This document shows, piece after piece, positions 19,513 through 53,599 of a stretch of DNA of 64,000 nt (within the stretch, counting starts at the first letter, position 1; the number at the start of each line of letters is the position of its first letter). Source of the stretch: Pristiophorus japonicus (lineage: Eukaryota); NCBI RefSeq assembly GCF_044704955.1, contig NW_027251843.1, positions 682,001-746,000 on the forward strand. Direction: 5' to 3'. A program made the translations under genes and the position numbers. Under the pieces are notes generated by a model. The model searched no databases. It was given only the letters and a program-made list of their open reading frames with translations, and had not been told where the DNA came from.

Positions 19513-20485
19513 GGTTTACGAAATTCCCCCTCTGTGTGTCTGCATTTAGTGCCTCCGGGGGGCGCTGACGGGGTGTGACATTGTCTTCCCCGGGAAGCGG
19601 GGTGGTGCGGGGGGTGAAATGGATAGCGCCCCCTGAGCCGTGGCTGCGCCCGTGAGCTGTGTCCGTTCCCCGTGAGCCGTGTCCCGTGAGCCGAGTCCGC
19701 GCCCCGTGAGCTGTGTCCGTTCCCCCTGAGCCGTGTCCAAGCCCTGTGAGCTGTGTCCGTTCCCCGTGAGCCATATCCAAGTCCCGTGAGCCGTGTCCAC
19801 TCCCCGTGAGCTGTGTCCGTTCCCCCTGAGCTGTGTCCGTTCCCCCTGAGCCGTGTCCGTGCCCCGTGAGCCGTGTCCGTTCCCCGTGAGCTGTGTCCGT
19901 TCCCCCTGAGCCGTGTCCGTTCCCCCTGAGCCGTGTCCGTTCCCCCTGAGCCGTGTCCGTGCCCCGTGAGCCGTGTCCGTTCCCCCTGAGCCGTGTCCGT
20001 TCCCCCTGAGCCGTGTCCGTGCCCCGTGAGCCGAGTCCGTGCCCCGTGAGCCGAGTCCGTGCCCCGTGAGCCGAGTCCGTGCCCCGTGAGCCGTGTCCGC
20101 TCCCCGTGAGCCGAGTCCGTGCCCCGTGAGCCGTGTCCGTGCCCCGTGAGCCGTGTCCGCTCCCCGTGAGCTGTGTCTGCGCCAGGCCTGTGGGTCACGA
20201 ACCGGGCCGCACTTCACTCGCGGGGTGAAACTTGCCGGGAGGTATGCGCCGCTGCACCCCGCCATTTGTTTTTGCCGACTTACCGGTCGGGCCTTTCTGT
20301 GCTGATGTGACAAGGTCGCTGCCGCGATGATGCAGCCTGACACTCGACCCCCCCGAGCCTAACCCCAGGGAAAGTGCAGCGCATCACTACCTGTCAGGGG
20401 CCGTGACCCCAATTTCGATTCCGGGACGCGATTTGGGCGTGGGAAAAGTTACTGACCCAACCGGGGCGATATGCAATTTGGGCCC
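19513..20485. mobile_element. Probable non-autonomous PIF/Harbinger-type element
   Basis: 3-bp TSD ATT (19510-12/20486-88); degenerate GG...CCC termini. Confidence 0.5.
19630..20180. repeat. 20-bp minisatellite (CCCCGTGAGCCGTGTCCGTT)n
   Basis: About 27 tandem units. Confidence 0.95.
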
Positions 20486-21918: not shown

Positions 21919-22059
21919 GTTCTGAGTTAGCTGTTCCAACTGAGGTCGGGATATGACTCACAGCTCAGACTGTGCGGCATCCAGTGATGCAATGTTGTAT
22001 CGTGGGCTGAAGAACCACTCCAGGGACATGAGTGTAAAATAAACACATACACTGCTGTG

Positions 22060-22730
22060 CAGTCCTGAGGGAGTGCTGCACTGTCAGAGGGGCAGTACTG
22101 AGGGAGTGCTGCACTGTCAGAGGGGCAGTACTGAGAGAGTGCTGCACTGTCAGAGGGGTAGTACTGAGGGAGTGCTGCATTGCCAGAGGGGCAGTATTGA
22201 TGGAGTGCCGCACTGTTGGAGGGGCAGTAGTGAGTAAGTGCTGCACTGTCGGAATGGCAGTACTGAGCGAGTGCTGCACTGCCGGAGGGCAGTACTGAGG
22301 GAGCGCTGCACTGTCGGAGGGGCAGTACTGAGCGAGTGCTGCACTGTCGGAGGGGTAATACTAAGGGAGTGCTGCACTGATCGAAGGGCAGTGCTGAGAC
22401 AGTACCACAGTGGCGGAGGGGCAGTATTGAGGGAGTGCTGCACTGTTGGAGGGGCAGGACTGAGCGAGTGCTGCACTGTCGGAGGGATAGTAGTAAGGGA
22501 GTACTGCACTGTTGGAGTGGCAGTTCTGAGAGAGTACTGCACTGGCTAAGAGGCAGTACTGAGGGAGTGCAGCACTGTCAGAGGCACAGTACTGAGGGAA
22601 TGCCGCACTGTCGGAGGGGCAGTACTGAGGGAGCGCTGCACTGTTCGAAGGGCAGTACTGAGGGAGTGCCGCACTGTCGGAGGGGCAGTACTGAGGGAGT
22701 GCTGCACTGTCGGAGGGGCAGTACTGAGGA
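22060..22730 (+). repeat. 33-bp minisatellite expanded from a DeuSINE hairpin
   Basis: (GTACTGAGGGAGTGCTGCACTGTCGGAGGGGCA)n, about 20 units, preceded by a SINE head at about 21960. Confidence 0.93.
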
Positions 22731-24264
22731 GGTGTCTGTCGGTGGTTTTCTCGGGCGTAACGAAAACGCACTTCCTACTACAAGTTCTGGACGATTGGGA
22801 TTGTATGGACAGATCAGACTCGGACATACATTTTTCGGGCTCAACCGTTTTGTGTTCAATAAGATTAACAACACCACTCATAAACAGTGCAAAACAGTAC
22901 AACCCTGTCTTGTCCAATTAGCCCTGCCATGCCAAGTTACCACGGCTTAATAAATGAACCCTCCCGTGAAATAAACTAACACAGGACCCCCCCAGCACTA
23001 AACCCCTTGGGTTTGGTTGCGACTTACAATCACCCCCTCACACAGCTAAGTGGTCTTGTGGATGTGTAGGCGCAGGCAATATGCTCACCCTGATTGCCCG
23101 TTGTCTTGCTTGCAGCTTCTTCCTGAACGTCTCGCTCCTGAGCTTTTCCTGGAATTTTTCGTGGGCTTTTTCCTGGGCTTTTCCTGAGCTTTGTCCTGGG
23201 CTTTTTCCGGAGCTTTCTTCCTCCTGAGCTGGAGCTTGTTGCAAAGTGGCTCCTTATATCCCCAAAACCCATCACTTTTCCTCCCGCCAATACTGACCGA
23301 TGGATTGACTCTGGTAATCTGACTGGACAACCTCCCCACCCCTCATAGCCTTTGAAATCTTTGTGAAAGATGATATTTTGTTTTCCCGCTCCCAGGCCTT
23401 GCATCTGGAGAGACAATGAGTGCTGATTACTGGATATCTGTCGTTTCCTGAGTTGATGGCCCCGCCCCCATTATCAGGTAATGGGTTTCGATCACAAACC
23501 GATCTTGCTTAACCGGCTTATCTCCTGGAAGACAATGTGCCGGCCATTTTCTGCCTTGGACCAGTTTGGGTTGGGACTGAGTCGTGACTGTGCTTTAATA
23601 ATGCGAAGTCACAGTGTCTCTGAGTTACCTCTCGGGGTATTGTTCCCAGTAATCACTTTAGATGGTGATGACATCAATGGGCCTGGGCCCCCTGTTACCC
23701 AGCCTGTCAGTGTGAAATGTCCGGTTGTATATGAATGCACCTCAGTGCCACCCCCACAAGCTCGCCAAACAGGACAGTTCTTTCTTGGGGATTTGGATTT
23801 AAGGGTTTAAAGTTTTGTTGATAGAAATGGCCAGAAAGCTGGTGCTACAATCCCCCTGATGATATTTTGTCACCAAAACCAGAAATATCTCGAATTCCGT
23901 CGTCTTCTGCTGCGGGAGGTGCATTGTGGGTCCATTACTGATCAATTACACCCGGGCTCCCGTTTCTTCTGATTTCCTGATTCAGACAAACAGATACAGC
24001 ACCACCTGTGAGTGAACGCTTTTTCCCTCCACAGGTCGGGCTTTCGTTATTTACATATATATACCGTTCGTTCTGCGTTATCGAGTGCCCCCGGTTAAAA
24101 TCTCTCCTGTTGGGGCCTCTTGCGGCTCATGGCCCGTGAGTAAGGAGGCGTCCACGGCGCCCTCGGCCGTGGTATCCGACTGTTTCTCCTTACCGTCCCG
24201 CCCTCTGGGTCATCACCATCGTCCCACACCACGGGAGGAAGACCCGTGTCCACCAGGCTCATTA

Positions 24265-27200
24265 TCATGCCCTGGTTTCTCTTTGCCTTTGACTTCCCCC
24301 CTCGGGGTTAAACAACTTACACTGGTTGATGTGACAGCATTTTGTGCATTTCCGGAGTCTGACTGCATATACCATGGGGCTGGCCTTATCTACGATGTTA
24401 TAAGGCCCCCTGTACATGGCTCGAATGCCCCCACTCGGGCACAGTTCCTGAACATTACCTGGTCTCCCACCTTCCACTCGTGGCTTCTCCGGGGCTCGAG
24501 CAGCAACCGATGTTTCCTGGTGCTGGTTCCCCAGGTTACTGGCTGCCTGCCAGTGAATCTGTTTTAAAACCTCAAACAGATTCTGGACAAACCTGTCCCG
24601 GTTTACCTCCCTGACCTGAGCTTCTGTGAGGACCGGCACCAACACATGGGTTTGGTGCACATAACCCTCCCGGTGATGACCTCATGTGGGGAGTACCCTG
24701 TGCTCCTGGTGGGGCTGGCCCGGACACCCATTAATACCAATGGCAGGACCTCGTCCCATCTCTGTGGGAACGGCCCTATCTCCTTCCTCAGTCTTTCTTT
24801 CAGTGTCTGGTCCATGTGCTCCACAATCCACGATGACTGGGGGTTGTGAGCCACATGCCATTTCCCTTGTATTCCCAGATGTTTGAAGGTGGCCTGCATC
24901 ACCTGCCCCGTGAAATGGCTCCCTTGGCCGGATTCCACGACCTGTGGCAGTCCCCATCGGGAGAACACTTCCCTCACCAGGATCCTTGCTGTCGCTAGTG
25001 CTGTGGCTGCTCGACATGGGAAGGCCTCCACCCACTGGTAGAATCCGTCCACCAGGACTAAGCCATACTTGTTGGGACCCTCTACCGGTTTGCCGTTCCC
25101 CCTTTGTAGAAGGATGGGATACTGTGCTTGGACTTGCTTTAAGTGCGGGGCCAAAGCTACCCGCTGTGTGCCTCCCTTGTCCCGGATTGCTGCTACTGGA
25201 CCTGCTCTATACGGATCCCAGAATACCCCTTCCCTGGCCCCCTGATTGGCCAGCTCGTCTGCCCTTTGGTTGTCCTCCTCCTTGGGCTCTGTCTTTGAAT
25301 TGGGCTTTAACCTTGTGTATGTCGTAATCTCCCCGGGTGCCCGTAACCTCTAAAATCCCCCCTAGCAACGGTGCTGTTGCTAGGGGCTTCCCGTCTACAG
25401 ACTTGAAGTCGCGCCGGGCCTAGATGGCCAAGTACTCATTGCACGAATTACAGGTGAACATGGAATCCCAACGGATGGTATAGGGGGTGGGGAACTCGTC
25501 GGGATGGATAACCACGTACACCACCACCGACAGTTTGACGTGCTGAGTGCTCAGGGTGCTGGGGAGTTTAATGGCTCTCACTACCTTAGCTGTGGGGTCA
25601 TAAATCCCACACCCAGTGAGACGCTTCCCATTCACCTCCGAACTGGACCCGTCTATGTAGATCTCCTGGCCTGTCGGGTGTATCCTGGCCCGGAATCCCA
25701 CATCTACGTCCCACACCTCTTCCACAGTACATGCATGGGCCGTCCCTGGGTAGATGAAATTCACAGCCAGCTTTGGCTCAGTCAACCCCTGCACTCTCAG
25801 ATTCATCTGCGAGAGCAATAAAGTCCAGCGGGCAATGCAGGCACGGCTTACTGTTCTATCCTTTATCCTCCCGTCTAACAACATCTGGCTGGGGGTGTGG
25901 TGGGTCAGTAGAACGATCAGGGATAATCCTGTAAAGAGCTGGGAGTGCGGGCGCCATCTGTAAATTCTCCTTGAGGCGGCTGAACGTTTCCTGACAGTTC
26001 TGGTCCGACTCCCTTGCGGAGGAGCTGAAGCAGAGGGGCTGCCGTGGCGACGTACCCCTCTATAAAGTCCCGGCAGTACCCTGTCAGTCCCAGGAAGGAT
26101 CTTACCCCGGTTACATCCTTGGGGGCGGGTAACTCCTGTACTGCCTTCCTCTTTGCCTCATCGATCGCTCGCTCACCAGCCCTTACGGTCAGCCCGAGGG
26201 ATTTGACTTCCTCCCGGCCGATCTGGCTTTCTTTGGGTTCACTTTAAACCCTGTCTCCCGCAACAGCCTCAACAGCTCATCCAGCAGTGGCCTGTGCTCC
26301 TCCCGCTGCACGGAGAACAAAAGCAAGTCATCCACATACTGGATTAGCTGCTGGGGTCGGCTGAAGCCTTTGAGTGTGTCTGCCATACACTGGTGGAATA
26401 TGGAGGGGCTGTTGTGGAACCCCTGGGGAAGACATGTCCAGGTGTACTGCTTCCCTTTAAATGTAAATGCAAACTTACACAGGTCTTCCCCTTTAACGGG
26501 AATGGACCAGAACCCAATGGAGATATCCAGCACTGTGACAGTGGTTGCGGCCGCTGGAATGCTCCCTCTGAGGTCAGCAACAGCCGCGACTGTGGGAGCG
26601 CAGGCTGGGATATTTTTATTGAGCACCCGATAGTCCACGGTGGTTCTCCATAACTGGTGGGGCTACTTAACCGGCCAAAGTGGTGAGTTTACCTGGCTGG
26701 CTATCGGCCTCAACACCTCCTGTTCCACAGGGATCCCAGTGCCGTCTCCAAGTCGACTTCTGCCTCTCTGGGGAAGCTGTACTGTTTCTGTGGCCGTGAC
26801 ATGGGGTCCCCTTGTACCCTGACTTCTACCCCGTCACCCTGCCACAGTCGTGTTGGTGAGTGGTGAACGAGGCGAGGTTGTCCCACACGTTCGCCGGATA
26901 GTTGGCCGGGGTGTTACAGACCAGCTGCTCTAGGCCGTAATTCCCCTTGGGCTCCATACTACCACACTACCCCTTCCTTCCCCATCTCTTGGGATCACTG
27001 TCACCTCCGGCTTTATCTGAAGCAACTGCCCCCCATAGGCAGTGATTCCTTAAAACCACAATCACTCGGTGGGCCAACATAAAGTCAGCCCCAAGGACTC
27101 CCGATCCGGACTGTTCCCATTGCATCAGGACGCACTCCCACGTGCTATGGAGAGATCCTAGTTCTATGGCCAGGGGTTTTGAGATTGCCCCAGCCTGCTC

Positions 27201-27404
27201 GTTCCCCATGAACCCCACGAGGCTGAATGGGACCCTGCTAGACCAGGGTGAATTGGTTGGGTTTGTTGAATGGTCCACCGTGCTGGAAGCCCCGGTGCCC
27301 ACCAAATATTTCCCCTGCTCCATCTCCATCCACATCTTTACCCAGGGACTGCCCCACTCATTGTACGTGAGTGGACACAGGTACTCAGGCTGGGCGGGTT
27401 CTCG
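24265..27404 (-). pseudogene. pol of element A (PR-RT-tether-RNase H-IN), frameshifted and deleted
   Basis: LVGTGAS, YVDDLLL, IYIDGSS..GCGIY, ESGQGSHF, GPY. Confidence 0.9.
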
Positions 27405-29029
27405 TCAGGGTGGGGGGCATGTGGGTGTGATGGGCATCTAACTTGTCTCTGTTCTTCCCATAACCTTCCGTTGGGCAGCCACCAGAAACTCGAATGACTC
27501 GTCGGTCGTCCCCTTCCCCTCTGTAACACGCGGCTTTTGCACTGGAGGACCCCCTCGGTCTGGCCCCCTTCCCCTTTTGGGAATGGGCAGTCTCGCCTCC
27601 AGTGTCCCGGCTTCCCACACCCGAAACAAGACCTGGACTTGTCGGTACTAACCCATTCCTGTCGCCATTCCTTCCTATTACCCTCACTGGCTTTCATTTC
27701 GTGGATCCTTCCATTTGATTTGACCTCTTTCCCGGAATCGGCCTTAAAGGCTGGACTCAGCTTTCTGAGCACACCTGCCTCCATATTGGCGAGGTTCTTG
27801 GGGTCAAACCACACTTCTGCCCTGGCCCTGATCCTTGGCAAGCTGTTGGCCACAAGGACCCTGAACCAGTGATTCCTGGGGTCCCTATCAACTGCGTGCA
27901 GTCGAGCGTCCATCCAGTTGCCTTTACGTACACAGGCCATCGCCTGTCCGCGAATGCATCTAGTGCCTCGCCGGACAGCTGCCTGGACCATTCTACCTGT
28001 AAGAACGGGCTACCCTGGGTATGCCCCATGGCCCTCAGGGTCTCGTCTTACAGCCCCTCTATGGTGCCTTCTACTCACTTTGTGGCTGCGGATAAGCCCT
28101 GATACAATCTCCAATCAAGGGAGGACAGAATCAGCCTGTTGATCTCGCCCTCACTACATCTGTTGACCCCCCTACCTGTTCTACTTCCATAAAGTGAACT
28201 TAGGGGTCGCCTCCCTGTTTGAGCTTGTGCGTCCCTGCTAGCGTGACTTGCAGCTGAGGGGTTGTGATCGGGACCACATAATCGCTCTGCAGTGGGCCCT
28301 GCTCACCGTTTGGTGCGGGTGGACCAAACTTCTGCTGCCGCAGAGGACACATTGGTGTTGGTGGTACTTCCGGCAACGGTCGGACTTCCCTGTCCTGAGC
28401 CCTATCATCAGGCTCCTGACCCTCCTTGTCCCAGTCTACCCCGGTTTTCCCCGGTGACATTAAACAGGCCAAACCTCTGGCTCAAGACAAGGCTTGGCTC
28501 AATTTATGGATCCTTTCCTTACAGGATCCGTGATCTGTTTCCTCATAGCCTCTACTCCTGGCTACTTTATCAACTATCTTTATATCCCTTAGCTGACCCT
28601 CCAAGCTGCCAGCTTTCGCTATTAGCCTCACATTCTCCTCCCGTAGGGCCTGCTCATTTACCTTGGCCTCTGTAACCTGACACTGTGGGTATTCCACCAT
28701 GTTAACGGAGGTCTCCTCTTGCTCACGTCTTTTTGCCTTTCCCCGTGCAGTTCCTCTAATACTCTGCTCCCGACTACCTCCCTCATGTGTGACCTATCCT
28801 CAGACTCTTTGAGCTCATTCCCTAACTTTTCAACATACTTCCTGAACAGTTGAACTTGCTTCTGCAGACACAGGAGCCAAATCACTTTTTCCTTTGATTT
28901 GCTGTGATCCCTGCTACCTGTCCACTCTGCATCCCTATCCTGGGGATTCTCAGAGCACAGCATCGCCAGCACCCATGGCTGAGACACGTTAATCTTATTG
29001 AACACGTCGGAGGAAATCCTATCCTCCAT
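27405..29029 (-). pseudogene. gag of element A
   Basis: Coiled-coil N-terminus, PLRQQKFGPP, CFGCGKPGHWRRDC; homologous to 43340-44940. Confidence 0.85.
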
Positions 29030-29065
29030 TCCGGGTCTTGCCTCTGATCCGACACAAAACTTATC

Positions 29066-29083
29066 GTCCTGCCGCGGTCGCCA
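29066..29083 (-). other. Primer-binding site, tRNA-Arg(TCG)
   Basis: TGGCGACCGCGGCAGGAC is complementary to the recalled 3' end GTCCTGCCGCGGTCGCCA; lies 5 nt from the LTR end. Confidence 0.8.
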
Positions 29084-29945
29084 ATATCTGTAGGTGCTTT
29101 TCTCGGGCGTACCGAAAATGCAAGTTCTGGATGATAGGATTTATTCAGGCTCAACCGTATTATGTTTTTTAAGATTAACAACACCACACATAAACAGTGC
29201 AAAACAGCACAACCCTGGCTTGTCCAATAAGCCCTGCCATACTAAGTTACCACGGCTTAATAAAAGAACCCTCCCGTGAAATAAACTAACACAGGAACCC
29301 CCCCCAGCAGTAAACCCTTGGGTTTGGTTGAGACTTACAATCACCCCCTCACACAGCTAAGTGGTCTTGCGGATGTGTAGACGCAGGCAATATGCTCACA
29401 CGGATTGCCCGTTGTCTTGCTTGCAGCTTCTTCCTGAACATCTCACTCCTGGTTCCGTACCGCCGATGCAGAATCCAAGTTCCAGTTTGAGTCGAGGTCA
29501 GTTGGTGAGGATTGAAGAGCAGCGCTCAGCTTCTAGCGGTGTTTCGTTGAATGAAGAGAGCTTCAGACCGTTGCAAAGTGGCTCCTTATATCTCCAAAAC
29601 CCATCACCTTTCCTCCCGCCAATACTGACCAATGGATTGACTCCGGTGATCTGTCTGGACGCCCCCCCACCGTGGCCTGGAGTGCCTCATAGCCTTTGAA
29701 ATCTTTGTGAAAAATGATATTTTGTTTTCCCGCTTCCAGGCCTTGCATCTGGAGAGACAATGGGTGCTGATTACTGGATGTCTGTCGTTTCCTGAGTTGA
29801 TGGCCCCCATTAGCAGGTAATGGGTTTCGATCACAAACCGATCTTGCTTAACCGGCTTATCTCCTGGAAGACAATGGGCCGGCCATTTCCTGCCTTGCAC
29901 CAGTTTGGGTTGAGACTGAGTGGTGACTGTGCTTTAATAATGCGA

Positions 29946-38921: not shown

Positions 38922-41813
38922 GGGCTAGAACCTCCACTTTTGAGCTTAGCACCCAAAAATGGCCATGAATTCCAGTGTGGGCGGTAAAAAAGGGTTTTCA
39001 GATCACCGGTTTCGCGCCCATTCTCAAAACACTTAGATTATATCTTTGAAAATGTGCGTTACCGCGAACGATTTCAAATGGGCGGTAGTGTTAAATTTTC
39101 TGACCTTCTGTTATAAAGTTTGGCCGTCCTGAGCAACAGCATGGCAATGGTCCATTCCCGCGATTCTGGAGGTCAAGGGTCACCATGACATACACAGAAG
39201 AGGAGACGGAGAGAGAGGGAGCTCAGAGGCACTGAAAGCGTGTGTGTCTGTGGTGTGCGTTTGTTTGGCTGTTGTGGGAGGCATGAGGGAGATTCACCAG
39301 CAGCAAAAAGCGCACTGAGCATCAAGAACATAGTTAGCATCGAGTTTTTGTCCCACAAATAACATATAACATGGAAGGGATGGAGGAGGCCCTGGAGCTG
39401 GTAGCCAGGAACACTGGTGGCAGAGGGCTCCCAGTGGTCCCGGAGTGCCGCACTGCACCTCAAGGTGACGCAACCCCATTGCCAACCACACATGAGAGCC
39501 AGGAGCAACATCTGGCTTCTGGCTCGAAGCACGTTCCCACCTTGGGACCGTCCTCTCGCGTTTCCGTCCAAGCAGCGCTTCGGTCATCACCACCCACCTC
39601 CCAATGAAGCATCGCCTGAGAATCTCGGTGGCCAGGCAGCTTGGAGTCAGGAGGGGAAGGGGAAGGGGTAGAGTTGGGGAGGAGAAGCGGGGTGGCTCAG
39701 GGGAAGGGTTGGTTTGTACAGAAATACTGATGATTTCAGACTAATGTTCGGTTTAAATGTTTTTTATTTAACTAAACCTTGCAGCACATTGACTCAGATA
39801 GCTGTGATTCGTTAACATCAAAGGATATAATCACACTTAACTTCAAGCAAAGTAAACTTTAACGGTCAGCAAGGTGATGCCCACAATTGATTTATGACCT
39901 GCACACCCAGCAGTGTGTCAGCCGTGGAAATAACACCAACGTTCTTTCAGGCAAAGCGATCATTGATGAGCTCCTGACGTAAGGCTCTTGCAGCTATCAT
40001 GCCACCATGGGCCCTTTCATGTGGTCTACAGAAGGGTGGGGCATGTCTTCAGCATCAGCCTGATTGTCTGACCCGATGTCAGCGTCCGCCTCCTCATCCT
40101 CCTCTTCCTCTCTCTGGTGAGATGGACTGTCAGGCTCATCAGGCAATTCTTGTCCCCTCCTGATAGCCAAGTTGTGTAGCATGGAGCACACCACCACTCA
40201 TTGAGCTACCTGCTCAGGGTGGTATTGGAGCTCGCCTCATGAGTGGTCCAGGCGTCTAAAGCGCTGCTTCAGCAATCCAATGTTTTCTCCACGATATTGC
40301 GAGTTGCTCTGTGGCTCTCATTGTAGCGCCTCTCGGCCTCGGTATGGGTGTCACGCAGGGGAATCATCAGCAAGGTGGCAAGGCCATATCCTTTGTCCCC
40401 AAGCATCCAGCATTGACCTTGTGTCTCATTGTTAAACAAGTCAGATACAGTGCTCTCACGCAAGATGTGCGCATCATGGATGCTGCTCGGAAATTGAGCA
40501 TTCACTGCCAGTATAATTTGCTGGTGGTCGACATCCAGCTGGACATTCTGAGAGTGGAATCCCTTGTGGAATCCTGAAAACATCAGCATCCTGAAAAGGT
40601 GCCCACATCGCGATGTGCGTACAGTCTATCGCTCCCTGCATCTTGGGGAAGTTTGCAATTCTGGAGAAACCTCGAACCCTCTCACTCTATGCCTCCCTGG
40701 TCATAGGGAAGCTGATCAAGTCCCTCCTGCGTGCGTACAGGGCTTCAGTGACCTGTCTAATGCAGCAATGTGTGGCATGCTGAGAAAGTCTGCAAATGTC
40801 GCCAGCTGTGGCCTGAAAAGAACCCGAAGCATAGAACGATAGTGGCGTGGTGACTTTGACCTCGACAGACAGTGCAGTTCTGATGGTGCTGGCAGGCTGT
40901 AGATCTGCCCTTATCAGCTGGCATACCTCAGTGATAACCTCTTTGTGGAAGCGCAGTCTCCGAAGGCTGGTGGTGTCGGGCAAGTCGAGGTAAGAATGCT
41001 TCTCCTTGTACTTGCGGGGGGTGTAACGTCTGGTCCTCCTCATCTGACTGTTATTTCGTACATTGGGCACATAATGCAATGTCGCGTTCCTTCAGCGATG
41101 TTGAGTCTGCTGCATATATTTGGTCACCAAGAGAGGGTGAGAAAGGACAGGCCCCATTGCAGTAGCTCTGTGTCTGTCACCGATTGCACACAAGCAAAGA
41201 ATGTCCCGACAAGCACACCTCTTCAATTCCAATCGGTCACAGTGTGGTCAAGATGTTTTCAGAGATGTTCACATCAACTCCAACGACCTGCAGAGTACAT
41301 CCGAACTCCGCCGAGGTGAAAGAACGCGACATGTGATCTACATCACGGCGTCCATAACGCTGTGATTCGTTCTGGTTAGTTCCACTTTTTGTGGGCGGTT
41401 TTTTGAGCGAGCGATATTGTGGGCGATATGTGTACGAGGTGGTGAAATTGATGGTGGGTGATCTCCATGGCCGTTACTTTGGGTAAATATGCTGTTCATG
41501 ACAAAAAATAGTCAGCGGGTTAATATTGAATCTCGGCATTAATTCCATGAGGAAAGTAACGCTGGGTGATAATATGGGCGTTGAATTTGCCCATTCTGCT
41601 GATTCCGCCCCAAAAAAGTAGGCGGGCGATAATATTTATTCTCTGCGTTAAGCCCATTGGGAAAGTAACGCTCGGCGACAAGTCTCCTAAAAAAGCCCGT
41701 CAGTTTCCATTTTGTGCCAAAATGGGTGATATCTGGGCATTATATGTCATTTCAGTGGTAAAATGGGTGTTAAGTGGGCATGAAACAGGCAATAAAAGAG
41801 GAGGTTCTAGCCC
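38922..41813 (-). mobile_element. PIF/Harbinger DNA transposon with decayed transposase (about 39960-41160)
   Basis: TIR GGGCTAGAACCTCC(A/T)CTTTT; TSD CAA; HARBI1-like motifs FYASGSFQ, HDAHIL, LGDKGY, YNESHRATRNIVEKT. Confidence 0.93.
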
Positions 41814-42600
41814 CAAGTCTGTAAAAGGACCTGACAACAAAGGAACCACAACAGTTGCACATTTTTTAGGATGAGGTGTTAAGATGAGAAATCAACTTGA
41901 GCCTTGCAGACTCAGTGTGCAAATGGGAAAACAGACGAGTTCATTATTGTAATCAATCAACCAAGGGGACCACAAAACAATGTATTGATGCAAACACTTT
42001 ATCAGAAACCGCAGTGGCGGGAGATCAGTCATAACCTGGATATAAATATGTGAGCTAGAAGCAGCTCAGCAGGAGATGGAACAAGGACAGGAACAGACGG
42101 AAGAAGAAGCACACAGGAGAAGTAGAAGGACACATGTACAGATGGACACAGGTCGAAAGAACGAACAAACAAACGGACGGAAAGACATGTTGTATGGAAC
42201 GTACACAGAAGGAACAGCACTGCAGAGAACGGCCAGAAGAAGAACCAACCGGTCACAGAACCAATGACCACAAACCTACAATGGCTACAGCCAGGAAGGG
42301 CAATTGTATGGTTTCAGTCGATTTCTCTCAGAAATCTAGTCCTGTAGTTTTAGACGGGTTTTGTGCACAATAAAACTGACACTGGGTGAAACCTAAATGT
42401 TGTGCCACATGTTGTCCTTTCCCACTACAAGTTCCCAGGTCGAAGAAACAGAGTAGAGTGAAAAACAAACAACCTACAGAAATTGGTGACCGCGGCAGGA
42501 CCTCGGCTTTGGGAATAGTATCACGGACACATACCAGGGCAAAAACCCTGAGGGAGGCTTGGTTACGTCTAAGGTTGGCTAAGGTGGTCGAAAAGGATCT

Positions 42601-43250
42601 TCTCAAGGGCGGCTAGGGTGACCAGGAGAGTAACAGGGTCTGATAGGCTTGAGTCGTCTCCGTCGATTAGGGTAGCCACTGAGAAAAGAAGTCTCAGGTA
42701 GTTGCTCAGTGGTCTGAGGGAGACCATTGTACTCTCAAAGGCAGCTAGGGCAGCCAGCAGAGGAAGGAACAGTCCTGGGTAGGCTGGAGTAATCCCGGGT
42801 TGACGAGTGTAGCCACCGAGAAAGCCGCAGGTAGTCTGCGAAGGGGTCTCAGGGAGACCAAGGGAATCTCAAGGGTGACCAGGGTAGCCGAAGAGCTCCG
42901 GCTGACTAGGGCAGCCACTGGGAGAAGTAATCGCAGGTAGTCTGCGCAGGGGTGTCAGGGAGGCCAGGGATAATCTCACGGGCGGCCAGGGCAGCCTGAG
43001 GAGAGAAACAGTCTCGGAGCGTCTGGAGTAATCTCGGTTGACTGGGGTGGTCGCAGAGAAAAGTCAATAGTAGTCGCTGATAGTCTCAGGGAGGCCAAGG
43101 GTGATCTCAAGGGCGACTAGGGGACCAGGAGAGAAAGTCTCTGACAGGCCGGAGTAGTCTCGGGTCGACTAGGGTAGCCACAGAGAGAAGCCAGAGTAAC
43201 AGGAACCGCAGGTCACTGCGAGGTGGTCTCAGGGGACACCAAGGTCGTCA
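42601..43250 (+). repeat. About 132-bp diverged tandem repeat in the leader of B
   Basis: TCTCAAGGGCGGCTAGGG-like starts at 42601, 42733, 42867, 42974 and 43105. Confidence 0.85.
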
Positions 43251-43339
43251 GGGAGAAATTCTCAGCCAGAGGCACTGGAAATGGACTCACCGCAGCAAAA
43301 CGTGATAGAGCCCGTGGCTAGAGCAGTTGTAGGAAGTCC

Positions 43340-44940
43340 ATGGAGGCTAAGGTAGCTGGATATATAGGCAACAAATTGGACATTTCAGGGCCATGGGCAC
43401 GGGAAATGCTGCACTCTGGGGATCCGCAGGAAAAAACAGCAGAGTGGACAGTCAGTAGTAACCACAAAGGGTCAAAAGAGAAGGCGGTTTGGCTCATTTG
43501 CCTGCAGAAGCAGACACAACTGTTAAGAGAAAGGGTAGGAAAGCTGGAGAAGGAGAACAAAGGGTTAAAGGGCGAGGTAGGCAGTTTGGAGAAGGAAAGG
43601 CAGGACCAGGGTAGGAAGGAAGAAACGGCACGGAATCACTTTGAGTATTTACAATGCCAGGTGACCGAGTGCAAAAAGCAGCAGCAGACCCACATTGAAC
43701 AAAGTGAAAGGCATTTAGAAAGAGCCAAAGAGGCAGAGGACCAGCTCAGGAGAGTCGATAGCCTATCAGGTAGCTCAAAAACAGGGTTATGCGAGAGCAG
43801 ATCACGGACCTTGTAAGGAAAAGATCCACCAATTAACGGCAGAGTTAGACGGGACCAAAGGGATGGTTTGTCTCAGGGCACCCGGAACAGGCGAGGAAGG
43901 TTGGGATCCAGAGGGGAAAGAGTCAGATGATGGGCCCGAGTATAGCGAGCATCGGCCGGCTCCCGAGGCACCGGGAGCCCCGAAACCGATGTGTCCTTTG
44001 AGACAGCAGAAATTCGGCCCACCCCCGCAAATGGTGGTCCGGCACCATTACAGAGCGACTCGTGATCCCATACACACCGCTTCAGCTGCAAGAGATGCTG
44101 ACGGGTGTGGTACAGTTAAAGCAAGGAGGAGATGCCTCTGTTCATTTTACTAATATAGAGCAGATAGGGGGTATCAGTAACTGCAGCGAGGAGGAGAAAG
44201 TGAAGCTAACACTGCTCTCGCTGGAGGGGAAGCTTTATCAGAGCTTGTCGACAGCCACCAAGTTAGGTGCAGGAACCCCACAGGGCTTAAAGGAGCAAAT
44301 GATGGCAGTGCTCGGGTACAGTCAGGGTAGTCCGTTCTGGCAGGTAGAACAGACTAGGCAGCAAGTAAACGAATCGCCCGATATGTTTGCAGACAGACTG
44401 TGGGCGATTTATTTCAGGGCTGCTGTAGGAAATCTGGTGCGGGCAGATTTAATAGGGGAACCCAGGGACCATTGGCTGAGAACAGTAATGGTAACAGTTT
44501 GCCACGGCTCAGAGCAAAGGTCGAAGTATGGTTTGACCCAGATCATCTCCAGAATACAGAGGCAGGGGTGCTGAGAAGATTAACTCTAGCTTTAAGTCGA
44601 GGCAAGGAGAGGAGGAGAAACTAAACGGGAAGGTACACGAAGTAAAAGGAGAGGTTAGGCCATAGAAAGAATGGAGACAAGAGGGAGGTAATGCAGGTCG
44701 ATCTAAAGGTGAGTGTTTTAACTGTGGGAAGTTGGGACACTGGAGCAAGGATTGTAGGCTCTCTAAAGGAGGGAAGCCAGGGTACGAGGTGCTGAGGCAG
44801 GAAAAGGCCAGAAGAAGGTAGCCGACGACCCAGTGCAGGTTTTAGTGGCCGCATTACAGCAGGTTATGGGCACGGGTGGAGGAAAGCTGGACGCAGCAGT
44901 GGGAGAAAAGGGACCCAATGTGTCGGCACCCCCTTTGTGA
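43340..44940 (+). pseudogene. gag of element B
   Basis: Coiled coil, PLRQQKFGPP, YTPLQL, CFNCGKLGHWSKDC; TGA at 44938-40. Confidence 0.88.
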
Positions 44941-47900
44941 CGGTGCACCCAGCCAGAATACCTGTGTCTGCTCATATATGATGGGTGGGGCAGGTCATGT
45001 GTGGATGTGAAGGTGGAAACAGTTACGGGAAGGGATCTAGTAGATACAGGAGCCTCTAACACGGTTGTCCACTCACCGAATCCGACCACTTCCCCGTGGT
45101 CGAGCGGAGTACCATTTACACTGGTGGGTTTGATGGGTAATGAGCAGGCTGGGGCAGTGTGGAAACCCTTTACCGTAGAGTTAGGACCGAACATAATGAA
45201 ATGGGAGGGCATTTTAATGAAGTGGGAACAGCCCGGTTCGGGAGTTCTCGGGGCCGACTACATGTTGACACACCACACCATAGTGGATATGGAAAACAAT
45301 TGTATATGGGAGGCAGTTGATGCAGATAAGATGGGAGAGATCGTAGTGATTCCCAGGAACAGTACAGACAAAGGCAGCACCTGCACGATGAAACCGAAAG
45401 GGAGTTATGACTGAGAACGATTAGTCGATAACATTCCGGCCCGGTATCAAGGTATGTACGGGAGAATATGGATGCGTTTGCAATGCACAAGCACGATTGC
45501 GGGATAGTATCTAGGGTAGAGGTGAAGATAGATGGGGATTCGATGACACGACCCCAGAAACAGTATAATTTTCCCCGGGAAGCAGAAAGGGATTTGGAAA
45601 CTGCTATAAATTCCCTGGTGGATCAAGGTGTGTTGAGGACCACAGCCACACATGTAAACTCACCCCTATGGCCAGTAAAGAAGCCCGATAACACATGGAG
45701 GGCCACGGTAGATGACCGAATCCTGAATAAAAATATTCCAGCCTGTGCGCCCACGGTAGCAGTGGTAGCGGATTTGATCGGGAGTATCCCTGCGGCCACA
45801 ACAACTTTCACAGTGCTGGACATTTCAAACGGGTTTTGGTCCATTCCCCTGAGATGGGAGGACCAGTATAAATCTACCTTTACCTTTAAAGGTCAGCAGT
45901 ATACGTGGACATGTCTTCCACAAGGGTTTCACAACAGTCCCTCGATCTTCCACCAAAGTATGGCCGAGGCATTAAACGGTTTTAGTCAGCCAGATCGGTT
46001 GGTCCAATATGTGGACGACCTGTTGTTATTCTCCGAAAGTGCGGAGGACCACGGGCCATTATTGAGTGAGTTACTGCATTTGTTGAAAGAAGCAGGTTTT
46101 AAAGTAAATCCCCAGAAAGCTCAAAAATGCAAAGAGGAGGTGCAGTTTCTAGGTTTGACCATTGGGGCAGGAGAAAGGGCCATAGATAGAGCTAACAGAA
46201 AGACAGTCCAGGAACTACCTGTTCCGAAGGACGTGTCTGGAGTAAGTTCTTACCTGGGAATAACGGGTTACTGCAGGGAATTCATAGAGGAATATATAAC
46301 CGTGGCAGCTCCTTTGTTGAGGCTTCTTAGGAAAGGAGTAGAGTGGGAATGGAGTGAGAGTTGTCAGGAAACTTTCATTTGGTTAAAAGAGGTGTTACAG
46401 ACAGCACCAGCGTCGAGAGCAGTAAATGGGGACCAGGACTTTAGTCTGGAGGTAGCAATGACTGGGGACAGTTTGAGTGCAGTGTTACTCCAGGAGCGAC
46501 ACAGCAAGCTGAGACCGGTGGCCTACGTCTCCTGAGTTCTCACCGAAGTAGAAAAGAGCTTTTCGAATTGCAAATGACATCTGTTAGTAATATGTTGGGC
46601 AGTGAAGCATTTTCGGTCGCTCACAGGGTTAGCTACAGTAACTTTACTGACCTGTCACACCACAACACAAATGCTACTGGATGGTAGAATGAAAGATGGG
46701 ACAGTGAGCAGTAACAGGATTGCCCGCTGGACATTGTTGCTTACTCAGTTAGACCTGAAGGTCGAGAGGCCCCGAGCCTGGTTTATCCGGGGACAGCTCA
46801 TGTGTGTTCAGTGGATGTAGATGTGGGATTCTGAGCAGGAGAACACCTGACAGGCAGGGACGTCTATGTAGATGGGTCCAGTTCAGTAATAAACAGAGAG
46901 AGAAAGACAGGCTGTGGGATTTACGATCCTGAGGCAGGGATAGAGAAAGCCATAAAATCCCCAACACTTTAAGTACGCAGCAGACTGAGCTAGCAGCAGT
47001 AGCGTATGTAGTCACACACCCAAACGAATTCCCAACTCCCTGTACGATATGTTCAGACTCCATGTTCATTTCTAATTCCTGTACAGAGTATTTAGCCATA
47101 TTGGCGAGGCGAGGGTTTAAGTCCTCAGATGGAAAATGGTTGGTGATGGTTCCATTGTTAAAAGTCATTTTGGATGTCAAGGGTAGGGACCAGAAGGATT
47201 ACTACATCCAAAAGGTCAAAGCACAATCTAAGACAGAGCCCAAGTGGGAAGGGAATGAGAAAGCAGACACACTGGCTAAAACAGGAGCAGGAGAAGGGAC
47301 ACCTTGGGACCCATGTCACTGTGGACAGATCATGGCTGTAACAGGCAGAGAGGGGCCCAAAGAAGTTCCATTGCCGCCTGATTTAAAACAGGCTCAGCTA
47401 CGGGATGCAAACCTTAGAGCAGCGATTAGGGACAAAATAGATGGGAAGTCTGTAGCGGGACCTTTGGGAGCTGCAGACATAGCAGTAAAGCAAGGAATGT
47501 TGTTCAAGGGAGATAGTTGGATCGTGCCAGGGCAGTGCAGGGAAGAATTCTTGCAGCTGGTGCATGGGGGTCCAGGAGCTGGACATCCAGGGCCAGAAAC
47601 AATGTGGAATAAAGTAGAAGCCGTGGGATGGTGGCCCGGGCTTAGAAGTGATGTCAGGGATTATTGCCAGAATTGTCTGGTATGTGCCACAAACAATCCA
47701 CACCCCCACCGAGGAAGGCTCCGTTGGGACACACGAGGATGGTAGAGGTGCCATGGCAGTCTATACAGATAGATTCCATTGGGCCACTGCCCACCTCAGG
47801 CAGAGGCAATAAATATTGCTTGGTGTTAATACATCTCTTTACAAAATGGGTTGAAGCTTTTCCATGTCGGGCGGCCACCGCGATAGTCACAGCAAAGATT

Positions 47901-48716
47901 CTGGTGCGAGAAGTATTTTCTCAATGGGGGCTGCCCCTGATAGTGGAATCAGATCAAGGGAGTCATTTCACCGGAGCAGTAATGCAGGCCACCCTAAAGC
48001 TGTTAGGGATACAGGGGAAATGGCATGTGGCGTATAACCCCCAATCGTTAGATCCAGTAGAGGACAAACCGGACCTTAAAAGAGAGGCTTAGGAAGGAGA
48101 TAGGAGATACCCCGAAGAAATGGGGTGAGACCCTACCCCTAATACTGATGAGCCACCGAGCCAGTCTCTCTAAGAGTACGGGACACTCCCCACATGTGAT
48201 GATGACAGGAGACTAATGATGACCCCGACCCATATCCTAGCACCAGTCCTGACTGAAACGCAGGTTAAAGAGATCACACGGGACAGGTTTGTCAGAGATC
48301 TGTATGGTACTCTGAAGGGGCTGCATTGGGAAGCAGCTAACAATATGGGCAGGCAGCACCAGCAGGATAAACTGCTGCTGGAACCCTGGGTTACACAGGA
48401 ATGGAGGGCAGGGGATCAGGTAATGGTCAGGAATTATACCAGAATAGCGGCATTTGAACCATTGTACAAAGGACCATATAGCATTGTAGACAAGGCAAGC
48501 CCTATGGTGTACACGATCCAGCTGCCAAAACATATAAAATGGTTCCATATAAACCAGTTTAAGCTGTACAATCCCGGAGAGAAAAGTAAAAAGCGGGCCA
48601 AGGCCCCAGGAACAATAATGAGTTTGATCAGTGTAAGCCTCCCACCAATACTGTGGGATGATGAGGATGGAGAAGTAAGGGATGGAGCAGTAAGGTGGAG
48701 TGGTCAGGTACTGTGA
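44941..48716 (+). pseudogene. pol of element B (PR-RT-tether-RNase H-IN)
   Basis: LVDTGAS; LPQGFHNSP; YVDDLL; LRPVAY tether; VYVDGSS..TELAAV..SDS..GNEKAD; H..H..C..C; WVEAFP; SDQGSHF; GPY. Confidence 0.92.
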
Positions 48717-48904
48717 CCTAGGGTGCCCTGGACACCTCCTCCATCTACACCCCCGAGCCTCTGTAAGCCCAAGCATCGGGATAAAAGGAGAGGGAAGCAG
48801 TGATTGTAAAAAGGAGTTATGTACATTTGTGAAAAACTGAAGGAGGACCTGTGAGGGGGAGGCCCCACAGAGCAAAGGTATTTCTTTCATTTTTGTCTTT
48901 ATAG

Positions 48905-50012
48905 GAGCGAATCGAGCCAAGGGTACGAGAGGAGGTGGACGTTGTGGATAGGCCTGTGGATGGCCATTATTATTAAAGGATTGGGAGATCGGGGAGACAC
49001 CGAGACATTCCTTACACACGGGTGTATGGGAGGAACCGGCCCCACTGTAACTCAAGGGGGAGCCATACGGAGCAACAAGGGCACAAACACCTCTGCTCAC
49101 ACTGGGAGCTGGCCAGGGTGGTTAGGGTCAAATTCGACCAAGTACTCCAGACAAACCGAGGGTAAACTTGGGGAGGTGTCAGTGTCCTGCCCCAGGGTAA
49201 ACATCACGGCCAGGAATGTACGGGTGAGAGAGGGGAGACGAGTTTGTCTGGAATGTAAAGGGATTGCCCCCATGGGAGGGTGGTGGTGGTTACAGAAAAC
49301 AGTCAGGGGAAAAGTTAATGCATCCACAGAATGGGAGAAACTGGGTAAAAACTCAAACAGGCGGAGCAGAGGAACAAGAGAAGGGGTGAAATTGTGTTGG
49401 GAAAAGTGGTGGAAGGAGGAACAAGGGATTTATGTCTGTGTGGTTGGATCTAGCCACAAGTGCAGGGGAGGTGTGGGGATTGTTTTTAAATGACAATGGC
49501 AGGATTCCGGGTCAGGAATGAATTGGACGCAGGGTTTTGATTCCTGTGTGACCTTGACCAAAGGCAGTCAATGCGATCGAACTGATTGCGAGCAGATTAA
49601 AACCTCTCCCTAAAATGCTGAAAGATTCTTCCTTTTGTTTCAAACCCCAGGTTGAGGCACAGTTAGCACAAGAAAGAATAATTCCTATCTCAGACCACAA
49701 ACATATCCGTATTACAGTCAATGATACGTTACGAACCTCCAGGGATACATATCGCGTGTTGGATACTATATCCCACCGTTACCCAAACATTTGACTGAAC
49801 TGTTAAAGAACATCGAGTTGTCCCACAAACATTATTACACGTTACAACAAAAGAATGAAAAAGTAAGGGTGGATATTGAGGAAATGATTGCCCCTCCACA
49901 GTGGGATGTGGGACTCAATATTGAGATCCCCTCCTGGGTTCGAATCGTATCACACTTGTTAGTAATTGTACAGTTGGTAATAGTGTTGTATCTATTCGTC
50001 TTGTCCTGTTAA
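48905..50012 (+). pseudogene. env-position gene of B: hydrophobic leader, Ig-like domain, heptad region and TM helix (disrupted)
   Basis: Acceptor TTTCTTTCATTTTTGTCTTTATAG at 48904; VREGRRVCLEC..WWW..VKLCW..EEQGIYVC; C-terminal IVSHLLVIVQLVIVLYLFVLSC. Confidence 0.7.
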
Positions 50013-51074
50013 TTAAAACAAAAGATGAGGGAAGGGAATCTTGAAAGGTTATTAAAATCAACCAAGGCGAAAGTGTTTGTAAAAGTATAAACTGAAGTCA
50101 GATGGATTAAGGACAAACATTGTTATGTTGTAAAAAGTATGTAATATGGAGATTTGACTGAAGACTGCAATACACCCAAAAGAGCTCAAGGGAAAGAAGA
50201 AGAAGCCACCTAGAGTAATGTCTCTGAGTTTATAACAAGAGATATTAAAGGGGGAAGTGTAAGGGTTATATGTTTCGTGATCGAGGCACAGCAAGAGGCC
50301 ATGGACTAAAATGGCTTAAAAGAAAACCTTTGGGACTGTTGGGCAGGAGAAAGAGCACCAGCCTGGGGCAGGTGATGACTGATCACTGATTAATGTGATT
50401 TCTGGGGTCAGGAGTGAGACCCGATTAACATCGAGACAAAGGGTTTGATACAATCAAGCAGAGCAGCCCATGTATTCATTGGCCGGAGGGGAAAACCAGT
50501 TCCCTCTGGAGACTCCAAGTCTGTGAAAACCCAGGACAACAAAGGATCCCACAAGGCATGCATTCTTGGATAACGGAGCACAAAAGATAAGCAGTTATCT
50601 TTTGCCCCGTCGATTCCATGTGTGAATTGTGGCCGTCCGAACAGATCCAGACCCATCACCACAGCCATCGAGGCTCATCCAGCTGCATTAACTGAAAGGC
50701 AGCCCAGCAGGAGATGTGTATAATCGAATGGATATATCTGTAAGAGCTGAGAACAAAGGTTCAGAGAGAGGAAGAACAGGTTGAAGAAACATCTCAAACC
50801 AGCAGGTCAATGAACTGCAGCCACGAAGCAGGAGCAGGGCCACAACACCTTCCCTCGCTCCACGAGCCGACAATGGACAACAGTAGCAACTGGCTGGATG
50901 GGCGATTGTATGTCTTCGGTCAATCTCTAAGAAGTCTTGTTCTGTAATGTTTAATTGTTTTTTGTGTAATAAACTAACAGTTGGGTTTAAGCCTAAACTT
51001 TGCATTACGTGGAGTCCTTCCTGTAATTCCCGAGGTCTATGAATCAGAGTAGAGTGGAAAACCAACACCCTACA

Positions 51075-53004
51075 GCACATGAGCTCATGACCGCGAGGTA
51101 AACCGGGACAGGTTGGTCCAGAATCTGTTTGATGTTTTAAAACAGATTCACTGGCAGGCAGCCAGTAACCTGGGGAACCAGCACCGGGAAACATCGGTTG
51201 CTACTCGAGCCCCGGAGAAGCCACGAGTGGAAGGTGGGAGACCAGGTAATGTTCAGGAACTGTACCCGAGTGGGGGCATTCGAGCCACTGTACATGGGGC
51301 CTTATAACATCGTAGATAAGGCCAGCCCCATGGTATATGCAGTCAGACTCCCGAAACATACAAAATGCTGCCATATCAACCAATGTACGTTGTTTAACCC
51401 CGAGGAGGGGGGAAGACAAAGGCAAAGAGAAGCCAGGGCACGATAATGAGCCTGGTGGACGCTGGTCTTCCTCCCATGGTGTAGGACGATGATGATGACC
51501 CAGAGGGCGGGACAGTAAGGAGAAACAGTCGGATACCACGGCCTAGGGCGCCGTGGATGCCTCCTTACTCACCAGCCGCGAGCCGCAAGATGCCCCAACA
51601 GGAGAGATTTTAACCGGGGGCACTTGATAACGTGGAACGAACTGCATATATATGTAAATAATGAAAGCCCGACCTGTGGAGGGAAAAAGCGCTCACAGAA
51701 CGGTGGTGTTGTATCTGTTTGTCTGAATCAGGAAATCAGAAGAAACGGGAGCCCGGGTGTAATTGATCAGTTATGGACCCACAATGCACCTCCCGCAGCA
51801 GAAGACGACGGAATCGAGATATTTCTAGTTTTGGTGACAAAATATCATCAGGGGGATTGTAGCACCAGCTTTCTGGCCATTTCTATCAACAATACTTTAA
51901 ATCCTGAAATCCAAATCCCCAAGAAAGAACTGTCCTGTTTGGCGAGCTTGTGGGGGTGGCACTAAGCTGCATTCATATACAACCGGACATTTCACACTGA
52001 CAGGCTGGGTAACAGGGGACCCAGGCCCATTGATGTCATCATCATCTAAAGTGATTCCTGGGAACAATACCCCGAGAGGTAACTCAAAGACACTGTGCCT
52101 TCGCATTATTAAAGCACAGTCACCACTCAATCCCAACCCAAACTGGTGCAAGGCAGGAAATGGCCGGGCCGTTGTCTTCCAGGAGATAAACCGGTTAAGT
52201 AAGATCGGTTTGTGATCGAAACACATTACCTGCTAATGGGGGCCATCAACTCAGGAAACGACAGACATCCAGTACTCAGCACCCATTGTCTCTCCAAATG
52301 CAAGGCCTGGGAGCGGGAAAACAAAATATCATTTTTCACAAACATTTCAAAGGCTACGAGCCACTCCAGACCACGGGGGGAGCGGGGGGAGGAGGGGTCC
52401 AGACAGATCACCGGAGTCAATTCATCGGTCAGTATTGGTGGGCGGAAGAAGTGATGAGTTTTGGGGATAGAAGGAGCCACTTTGCAACAAACTCCAGCTC
52501 AGGTGGAAGAACGCTATGGAAAAAGCTCCGGAAAAAGCCCAGGAAAAAGCTCCGGTTAAAGCTCCAGAAAAGCCCAGGAAAAAGCCCAGGAAAAAGCCCA
52601 GGAGTGAGACGTTCAGGAAGAAGCTGCAAGCAAGACAACGGGCAATCAGGGTGAGCATATTGCCTGCGCCTACACATCCACAAGACCACTTAGCTGTGTG
52701 AGGGGGTGATTGTAAGTCCCAACCAAACCCAAGGGGTTTAGTGCTGGGGGGTGGTCCTGTGTTAGTTTATTTCACGGGAGGGTTCTTTTATTAAGCCGTG
52801 GTAACTTAGCATGGCAGGGCTTATTGGACAAGCCAGGGTTGTACTGTTTTGCACTGTTTATGAGTGGTGTTGTTAATCTTATTAAACACAATACGGTTGA
52901 ACCCGAAAAACGTGTGTCTGAGTCTCATCTGTCCATATAATCTCTATCGTCCAGAACTTGTAGTAGGAGGTGCGTTTTTGGTACGGCTGAGAGAACCACC
53001 TACA
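51075..53004 (+). mobile_element. Duplicate of the 3' end of element A (IN C-terminus + about 1.38-kb LTR from about 51625)
   Basis: Reverse complement of about 22737-24690. Confidence 0.92.
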
Positions 53005-53009
53005 GGCAA

Positions 53010-53390
53010 CCCCTCAGTACTGCCCCTCCGACAATATACCACTCCCTCAGTACTGCCCCTCCGACAGTGCAGCACTCCCTCAGTACTGCCCCTCCGACAG
53101 TGCAGCCCTCCCTCAGTACTGCCCCTCTGACAGTGCAGCACTCCCTCAGTTCTGCCCCTCCAACAGTGCAGCACTCCCTCAGTGCTGCCCCTCTGACAAT
53201 GCAGCACTCCCTCAGTACTGCCCCTCTGACAGTGCAGCACTCCCTCAGTACTGCCCCTCTGACAGTGCAGCAATCCCTCAGTACTGCCCCTCCAACAGTG
53301 CGGCACTCCCTCAGTACTGCCCCTCTGACAGTGCAGCACTCCCTCAGTACTGCCCCTCTGACAGTGCAGCACTCCCTCAGGACTGCACAG
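53010..53390 (-). repeat. 33-bp DeuSINE minisatellite, about 11 units
   Basis: Inverted paralog of 22060-22730. Confidence 0.93.
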
Positions 53391-53599
53391 TAGTGTATGT
53401 CTTTATTTTGCACTCAGGTCCCTGGAGTGGGGCTTGAACCCACGATACAACATTGCATCACTGGATGCCGCACAGTCTGAGCTGTGAGTCATATCCCGAC
53501 CTCAGTTGGAACAGCTAACTCAGAACAAACAACAACAGCAACTTTTATACAGCACCTTTAACACAGTAAAACTCCCCGAGTGCTTCACAGGAGCATTGT

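Follow-up and report, generated by a model that had tools for sequence, protein, structure and literature searches.

The window, a stretch of 64,000 nucleotides from Pristiophorus japonicus, contains at its env locus a broken, dead, centre-deleted copy of an abundant (high-copy) shark endogenous retrovirus. The provirus is laid out as follows.

41820..42478, plus strand: 5′ LTR, with TG..CA ends
42484..42501, plus strand: primer binding site, complementary at 18/18 bases to the 3′ end plus CCA of a host tRNA-Arg(TCG)
43322..44574, plus strand: gag in several broken frames, with an N-terminal coiled coil (assigned by position; coiled-coil Pfam matches below cut-off)
44941..45411, plus strand: retroviral protease (Pfam RVP, E 0.034; LVDTGA motif)
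45432..46817, plus strand: reverse transcriptase (RT) and tether, a degenerate RNase H (RVT_1, E 3e-34; RT_RNaseH_2, E 7e-9; RT_RNaseH, E 4e-5)
46933..48716, plus strand: second RNase H and integrase, frameshifted (RNase_H, E 6e-8; Integrase_H2C2, E 9e-18; rve, E 6e-13)
48881..48904, plus strand: predicted env splice acceptor (pyrimidine tract, AG at 48903-04)
48936..48974, plus strand: hydrophobic leader, a predicted signal peptide; the family's upstream start codon is missing in this copy
48990..49187, plus strand: N-terminal module of unknown fold, conserved (GC..G..P, WPGWLGSNS)
49188..49490, plus strand: probable Ig-superfamily (IgSF; V/I-like) domain with two extra cysteine pairs (sequence and profile matches)
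49491..49618, plus strand: in-frame stop (at 49491), followed by what is left of a linker, in which the frame changes
49619..49628, plus strand: junction of a deletion of about 1.15 kb, at a short microhomology
49629..50012, plus strand: 3′ remnant of env, split over two frames (HR2-like helix, WD, transmembrane (TM) helix)
50247..50257, plus strand: polypurine tract
50258..51074, plus strand: 3′ LTR, of a subfamily other than that of the 5′ LTR

The provirus is a mosaic: its two LTRs belong to different subfamilies and no target-site duplication was found between them, from which we conclude that it was rearranged after integration. Of 11 copies selected with the 5′ part of env, 6 have LTRs that match the 5′ LTR (median 83%), against none of 20 selected with the 3′ part; the 3′ LTR matches 17 of those 20 and none of the 11. 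Degenerate direct repeats are found in the proviral leader (window 42593-43193), between the primer site and gag. A segment (51076-53000) that starts directly behind the 3′ LTR, first with a 3′ piece of integrase, forms an inverted duplicate, at 91%, with 22741-24628 and is part of an amplified cluster. Tandem arrays of 20 and 33 bases lie at 19577-20277, 21960-22816 and 52940-53452, the 33-base array belonging to the duplicated segment. A second, related provirus, without an env match, is on the minus strand at 24285-29095 (its RT is 53% identical in protein and about 65% in DNA) and is followed by rearranged pieces. The broken frames at 39997-41091 on the minus strand have transposase motifs, which we take to be of the Harbinger type.

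The original prediction, made from the letters of this copy, had placed an Ig-superfamily domain in the env slot, and the features it listed are present. A splice-acceptor-like signal follows integrase, with an AG that is preserved in 25 of 31 aligned dispersed copies, and the open frame (48855-49493, 212 codons) contains the hydrophobic leader, four sequons (49086, 49131, 49200 and 49317) and VRVREGRRVCLEC, which is read there as described. Three tryptophans lie 9-11 residues past Cys 49254, EEQGIYVC holds Cys 49437, which is 61 residues from Cys 49254, and four more cysteines (49188, 49245, 49395 and 49461) would allow two further pairs. After the stop and the frame changes come SFCFKP, a heptad stretch, WD, a TM helix (49944-50000) and the polypurine tract; a stop in this 3′ remnant takes away a short tail found in dispersed copies. 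A loose Ig pattern, composed with this locus already known, has a single match in the six frames of the window and none in 30 shuffled windows.

Compared with dispersed copies, the env is short by about 1.15 kb, lost at 49619-49628. From the shark's own genome (5.9 Gb, to which a protein labelled sawshark matches at 99%) we fetched 35 dispersed loci, chosen as best matches, so that the counts given here apply within this sample and are not copy numbers. All 29 that could be aligned on both sides of the junction carry extra sequence there (856-3824 bases; 1121-1201 bases in 21 of the 29). In translated dispersed copies the missing part comprises the remainder of F2 and a basic cleavage site, and in addition a stretch resembling a fusion peptide, a long heptad region (HR1) and a cysteine-rich core, with R-x-K/R-R preceding the fusion peptide in 17 of the 20 copies in which the latter is readable. 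That furin site and fusion peptide are lacking, as was reported, is true of the window copy only; undeleted copies have the site and a fusion-peptide-like stretch. The original prediction had offered two options. An envelope with an N-terminal Ig domain and a lost centre is supported, the centre being the deleted segment and the full protein a predicted F-like class I fusogen; a family carrying a non-fusogenic IgSF membrane protein is refuted at the level of the family.

The 22 places without the extra sequence (the window included) are all on C8 at 143-148 Mb or on C1231, and no deleted form was found outside this amplified cluster among the dispersed loci sampled. At seven further cluster loci the match ends at the junction; the one of these that was inspected runs on through the cleavage site. 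Because the flanking DNA of the cluster copies was amplified together with the deleted env, the shared deleted state reflects segmental duplication. A deletion during reverse transcription that then spread as a family was rejected, since the deleted form was found in the cluster alone and the two LTRs are of different subfamilies. The window copy lost its centre once it had integrated, was multiplied along with the segmental amplification and is unable to make the full Env. The idea that splicing supplies the initiator ATG proved unnecessary and was dropped: of 31 aligned dispersed copies, 28 have a start codon that lies past the acceptor and ahead of the leader, and 29 of 29 cluster loci lack it. 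The family has a start codon of its own, which the cluster has lost.

We consider it very likely that the segment at 49188-49490 has an Ig fold. It shows the V/I-set hallmarks (a B-F cysteine pair, a C-strand Trp and D/E-x-G-x-Y-x-C), and Pfam Ig_3 matched the trimmed window segment at E 0.0011 (19.9 bits against a cut-off of 30), the best family member at E 5.8e-5 and 16 of 19 profile rows at E ≤0.1, all Pfam scores being below the cut-off. An Ig-only profile of 19 rows gave 43 PDB matches, 40 of them IgSF by name; the best was CD8 alpha (E 0.0011), in the alignment with which the Cys, Trp and E-x-G-x-Y-x-C spacing agrees end to end. The ten matches listed by an ESM Atlas search were all Ig clusters (scores 0.92-0.94). 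Against the PDB, the single window sequence found no Ig match (one chance match was to an ArfGAP), nor did profile A5, which had untrimmed rows and after which the Ig search was rerun with trimmed ones. Profiles A1 and A4 also matched Ig (16/18 in one case) but included frog and bamboo-shark rows, for which reason they were put aside in favour of A6, the profile relied on. Pfam found no match in the X-read-through of one dispersed env. AlphaFold gave an unusable model of the window piece alone (pLDDT 33) and, in the model of a sister-family env, strands over the Ig part at pLDDT 40-53, the Ig region being barely covered by the fold search; the N-terminal module upstream was at pLDDT <35. In the fold checks that had been proposed, profile searches matched IgSF weakly and AlphaFold gave low confidence.

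That the Ig segment might be unique to the window copy was a concern raised at the outset, and it does not apply: the segment is family-wide, in dispersed copies and in sister families. A genome search with it returned 7149 candidates, and 150 of the 150 that were scored match at ≥70%. Both younger families of the same genome and proteins labelled skate, whale shark and sawshark contain homologues at 38-50%, and UniRef automatically names one bamboo-shark homologue ‘Ig-like domain-containing protein’. The N-terminal module, too, is retained in sister families and in skate and whale shark. Among 57 dispersed copies, the B-strand Cys, the Trp, the Tyr and the F-strand Cys are each kept in 56, and each of the four extra cysteines in 54-57. 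The Ig segment is under purifying selection and conserved from sharks to skate, which answers the dN/dS question posed with the original prediction: between families pN is 0.35, close to that of the fusion core (0.27-0.34), and pS is saturated at 0.81, and one unsaturated pair has a dN/dS of 0.09.

Several related sequences deserve mention. Loci L108-L114 represent younger sister families in which module, Ig domain and core are arranged in the same way, and copies of one of these are 92-98% alike in env protein. An unbroken env frame of 786 codons (L084:1462-3819, also L115) belongs to a distant family and is 45% identical to a bamboo-shark protein; copies related to it at 82-88% have broken frames, the 20 kb fetched contain no pol frame of the kind with ≥300 codons, and it is a candidate for an env co-opted by the host. 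Three proteins (P0004, P0005 and P0011) are gene models that join env pieces to Niban-, zinc-finger- and cadherin-like proteins, which may be either annotation artefacts or exonisation.

The fusion core was modeled on a sister family, whose natural, unbroken env frames have the same layout and are 46% identical to the window piece. In contrast to the window copy, a single frame there encodes everything from the cleavage site and fusion peptide through HR1 and HR2 to the TM helix. The model of this env, built on an alignment of 37 natural rows, reached a mean pLDDT of 54. Foldseek matched the model to the F proteins of RSV, hPIV3 and NDV (E 1e-7 to 1e-6, RSV F and hPIV3 F being the best) and to foamy Env (E 9e-5); in VIA, the 11 top rows were all F proteins or foamy Env (Z 6.2-7.5). 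As the TM-scores are low (0.2-0.25 of query) and Z is below 8, which according to the tool may reflect only a common arrangement, our assignment rests on all top matches being of one class: the full env of the sister family is predicted to be an F-like class I fusogen resembling paramyxo- and pneumovirus F. In a viral structure library the same model was matched by F-like glycoproteins as well as by walleye epsilonretrovirus Envs. The latter (WEHV-1 and WDSV) rank third and fifth, which suggests that they may also have an F-like core.

Judged by its sequence, the family probably belongs to the SnRV clade and has a Loki-like Env. Its RT scores 170-173 bits with MLV-type and foamy viruses and 132 with Ty3; the nearest named relatives are frog and coelacanth proteins (46-49%), four top matches are automatically named NYNRIN-like (an integrase closest to CGIN1/NYNRIN is a mark of lokiretroviruses), and a viral contig collection gave no RT match. 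The RT tree, which has no labelled SnRV or Loki row, groups the window RT with sister shark families (100/99), and this shark group lies outside a 22-row group of weaker, probably class I-like matches. By eye, the motifs LDISNGFWSI, LPQGFH.SP.IFHQ and QYVDD agree with the SnRV row of a published alignment, and all 24 Loki RT rows show PFG where the window RT has LPQGF; on this by-eye comparison we rejected membership in the lokiretroviruses. The env does resemble that of lokiretroviruses, a comparison that the original prediction had proposed; the pol does not. The window pol has a dual RNase H (tether plus RH), which is common to all retroviruses and therefore not diagnostic of Loki. For the primer-site tRNA, ARAGORN reported Arg(tcg) at one of three loci, Ser(cga) at another and nothing at the third, and both aligned tRNA genes show CUUCG in the anticodon loop. 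SnRV also uses an arginine tRNA as primer. Intron-containing tRNA-Arg(TCG) genes are found in tandem arrays with a spacing of about 3.1 kb (L164-L166; C27, C198), and the pattern of this gene has 943 matches in the genome. The Gag coiled coil has weak Pfam matches in the window, and at the sister loci L110 and L112 a single in-frame stop separates gag from pol; both features have been described for SnRV (PMC2717909).

Several published systems are close to this family. The shark family resembles the SnRV clade (Huo, PMC6001957) in RT motifs, Gag coiled coil and in-frame gag-pol stop, and SnRV-like elements are known from elephant shark as CmiERV lineage I (PMC4422223). It resembles the lokiretroviruses in having a dual RNase H and an F-like Env, which comprises a signal peptide, an RXKR site and a fusion peptide, then coiled coils and a TM helix (PMC7947760), and by eye the F2 start (GP..G..L) and the cysteine-rich core are the same. 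In the 17 Loki Envs with N-termini compared (18 of 23 listed entries were covered, one of them a fragment), however, the leader leads directly into F2, with no head, whereas in the shark family about 230 residues, including the Ig domain, are inserted between them. Wang and Han counted no Loki among 3 chondrichthyan genomes (PMC7947760). An N-terminal IgV-type domain on a retroviral Env is known from Env-Dbi and RBD-C, with SIRP-like domains, and from the IgV-like receptor-binding domain (RBD) of MLV and FeLV; a canonical B-F disulfide plus an extra one is found there, as the cysteines of the shark head would also allow, and Hotzel proposed that the SIRP-like domain is a receptor-binding domain derived from a host gene (bioRxiv 10.1101/2024.03.17.585361). 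Those Envs are of mammalian gamma- and alpha-type with SIRP as a clear donor, whereas the shark Env has an F-like core and a donor that is not recognisable. In CrocERV31 (Chong et al., PMC4299795), nectin3 Ig domains likewise occupy the env slot of a class III-like ERV, but there a whole host mRNA replaces env, whereas the shark family keeps its predicted fusogen intact and joins a single domain to it in frame. Foamy Env, which with paramyxo- and pneumovirus F is of the same fold class as the sister env by Foldseek and VIA, carries a binding domain of its own, although that domain has a novel fold and was inserted ahead of the furin site, and the shark module is N-terminal and Ig-like (PMC11468914). 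Ig heads on retroviral Envs, Ig capture by ERVs and F-like retroviral Envs are thus already in print; in the literature searched, with 18 of the 23 Loki Env entries covered, none was reported on an Env of the F type.

We think it probable (roughly 0.68) that the full envelope of this family combines the probable Ig domain with a predicted F-like fusogen, that the Ig domain is likely its receptor-binding head, and that the virus probably belongs to the SnRV clade. A spliced env mRNA would give a type I glycoprotein, which furin would cut into a surface part (module, Ig and F2-like) and a TM part (F1-like); the trimer would grip a cell-surface receptor via its Ig heads, and the core would then refold and the membranes fuse. 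Paramyxo- and pneumovirus F proteins rely on a separate attachment protein (PMC11468914), so a one-gene virus would need a built-in head. We infer the receptor-binding role from the slot, which is shared with the MLV-type and SIRP-like Ig RBDs, and from the constraint on the segment together with the variation of this slot between families. One young family of the same genome has the same core with a non-Ig front, and the Ig domain is thus not needed for this core. The domain would have been captured from a host gene, although no donor gene was identified.

Other readings have to be weighed against this one. The segment could instead be a viral beta domain, rich in disulfides, whose likeness to Ig is confined to sequence patterns; for this one could cite the sub-threshold Pfam scores, the low pLDDT, the failure of profile A5 and an unusual Cys and Trp content; but three differently built searches agree on IgSF, and the Cys, Trp and E-x-G-x-Y-x-C spacing agrees with CD8 alpha over its full length, so we regard it as distinctly unlikely. 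A still less probable idea, to which we give very little credence, is that the deleted form is itself functional, as a short, non-fusogenic Ig membrane or secreted protein that the host has kept in the amplified cluster. Its 212-codon frame is indeed open in many cluster copies and the deletion is common to 22 places, yet all 29 cluster loci examined lack the start codon, a stop parts the Ig domain from the TM helix, which lies in other frames, and several cluster copies have stops within the Ig domain; the co-amplified flanks explain the shared state by segmental duplication.

The strongest of the alternatives, though we still consider it rather improbable, accepts the same architecture and assigns the Ig domain mainly to immune modulation or evasion, as a decoy or shield, with receptor binding left to the upstream module or the F core. 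The nearest solved matches are immune receptors (CD8 alpha and CRTAM), though the matches are weak, and neither the family with the non-Ig front nor the 17 Loki Envs compared have such a head. N-terminal Ig domains on other retroviral Envs, however, are RBDs or have been proposed to be (bioRxiv 2024.03.17.585361), and related families all retain some N-terminal module in the slot, as expected of an exchangeable binding head. We therefore favour a receptor-binding head.

Related Envs in the same genome and in frogs have other modules in this position. A young, high-copy shark family (L096-L107, L117 and L118) has the same F-like core behind a non-Ig, cysteine-rich N-terminal module. Frog proteins P0026 (in a cluster of 14 members), P0043 and P0023 are Envs with this core, and one frog gene model joins this Env to a related pol. 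In two of the three the Ig head weakly resembles CEACAM and lacks the canonical disulfide (Pfam Ig_3, E 1e-4 and 0.048), and an Atlas search with a frog env gave one unnamed cluster (0.84). When the five kinds of N-terminal module were compared profile against profile, with shallow alignments, no pair was significant (best probability 2.4%). Our tentative proposal, which we hold with less than even confidence, is that shark and frog viruses of the SnRV clade share an F-type chassis on which host IgSF heads have been repeatedly captured and swapped as RBDs. The head would be V-like and rich in cysteines in sharks and skates, would in frogs be an unrelated, CEACAM-like one that lacks the disulfide, and would in another shark family be a non-Ig module.

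The locus itself is a dead copy, and its interest rests with the family. F-like Env would not be confined to lokiretroviruses and foamy viruses. If our reading is true, an Ig domain on an F-type core, selected across sharks and skates, shows how F-like retroviral envelopes find cells, and the different Ig head of frogs would parallel the shark and skate head on the same core. It would extend the capture of host Ig domains from the gamma- and alpha-type Envs of mammals to the oldest jawed vertebrates.
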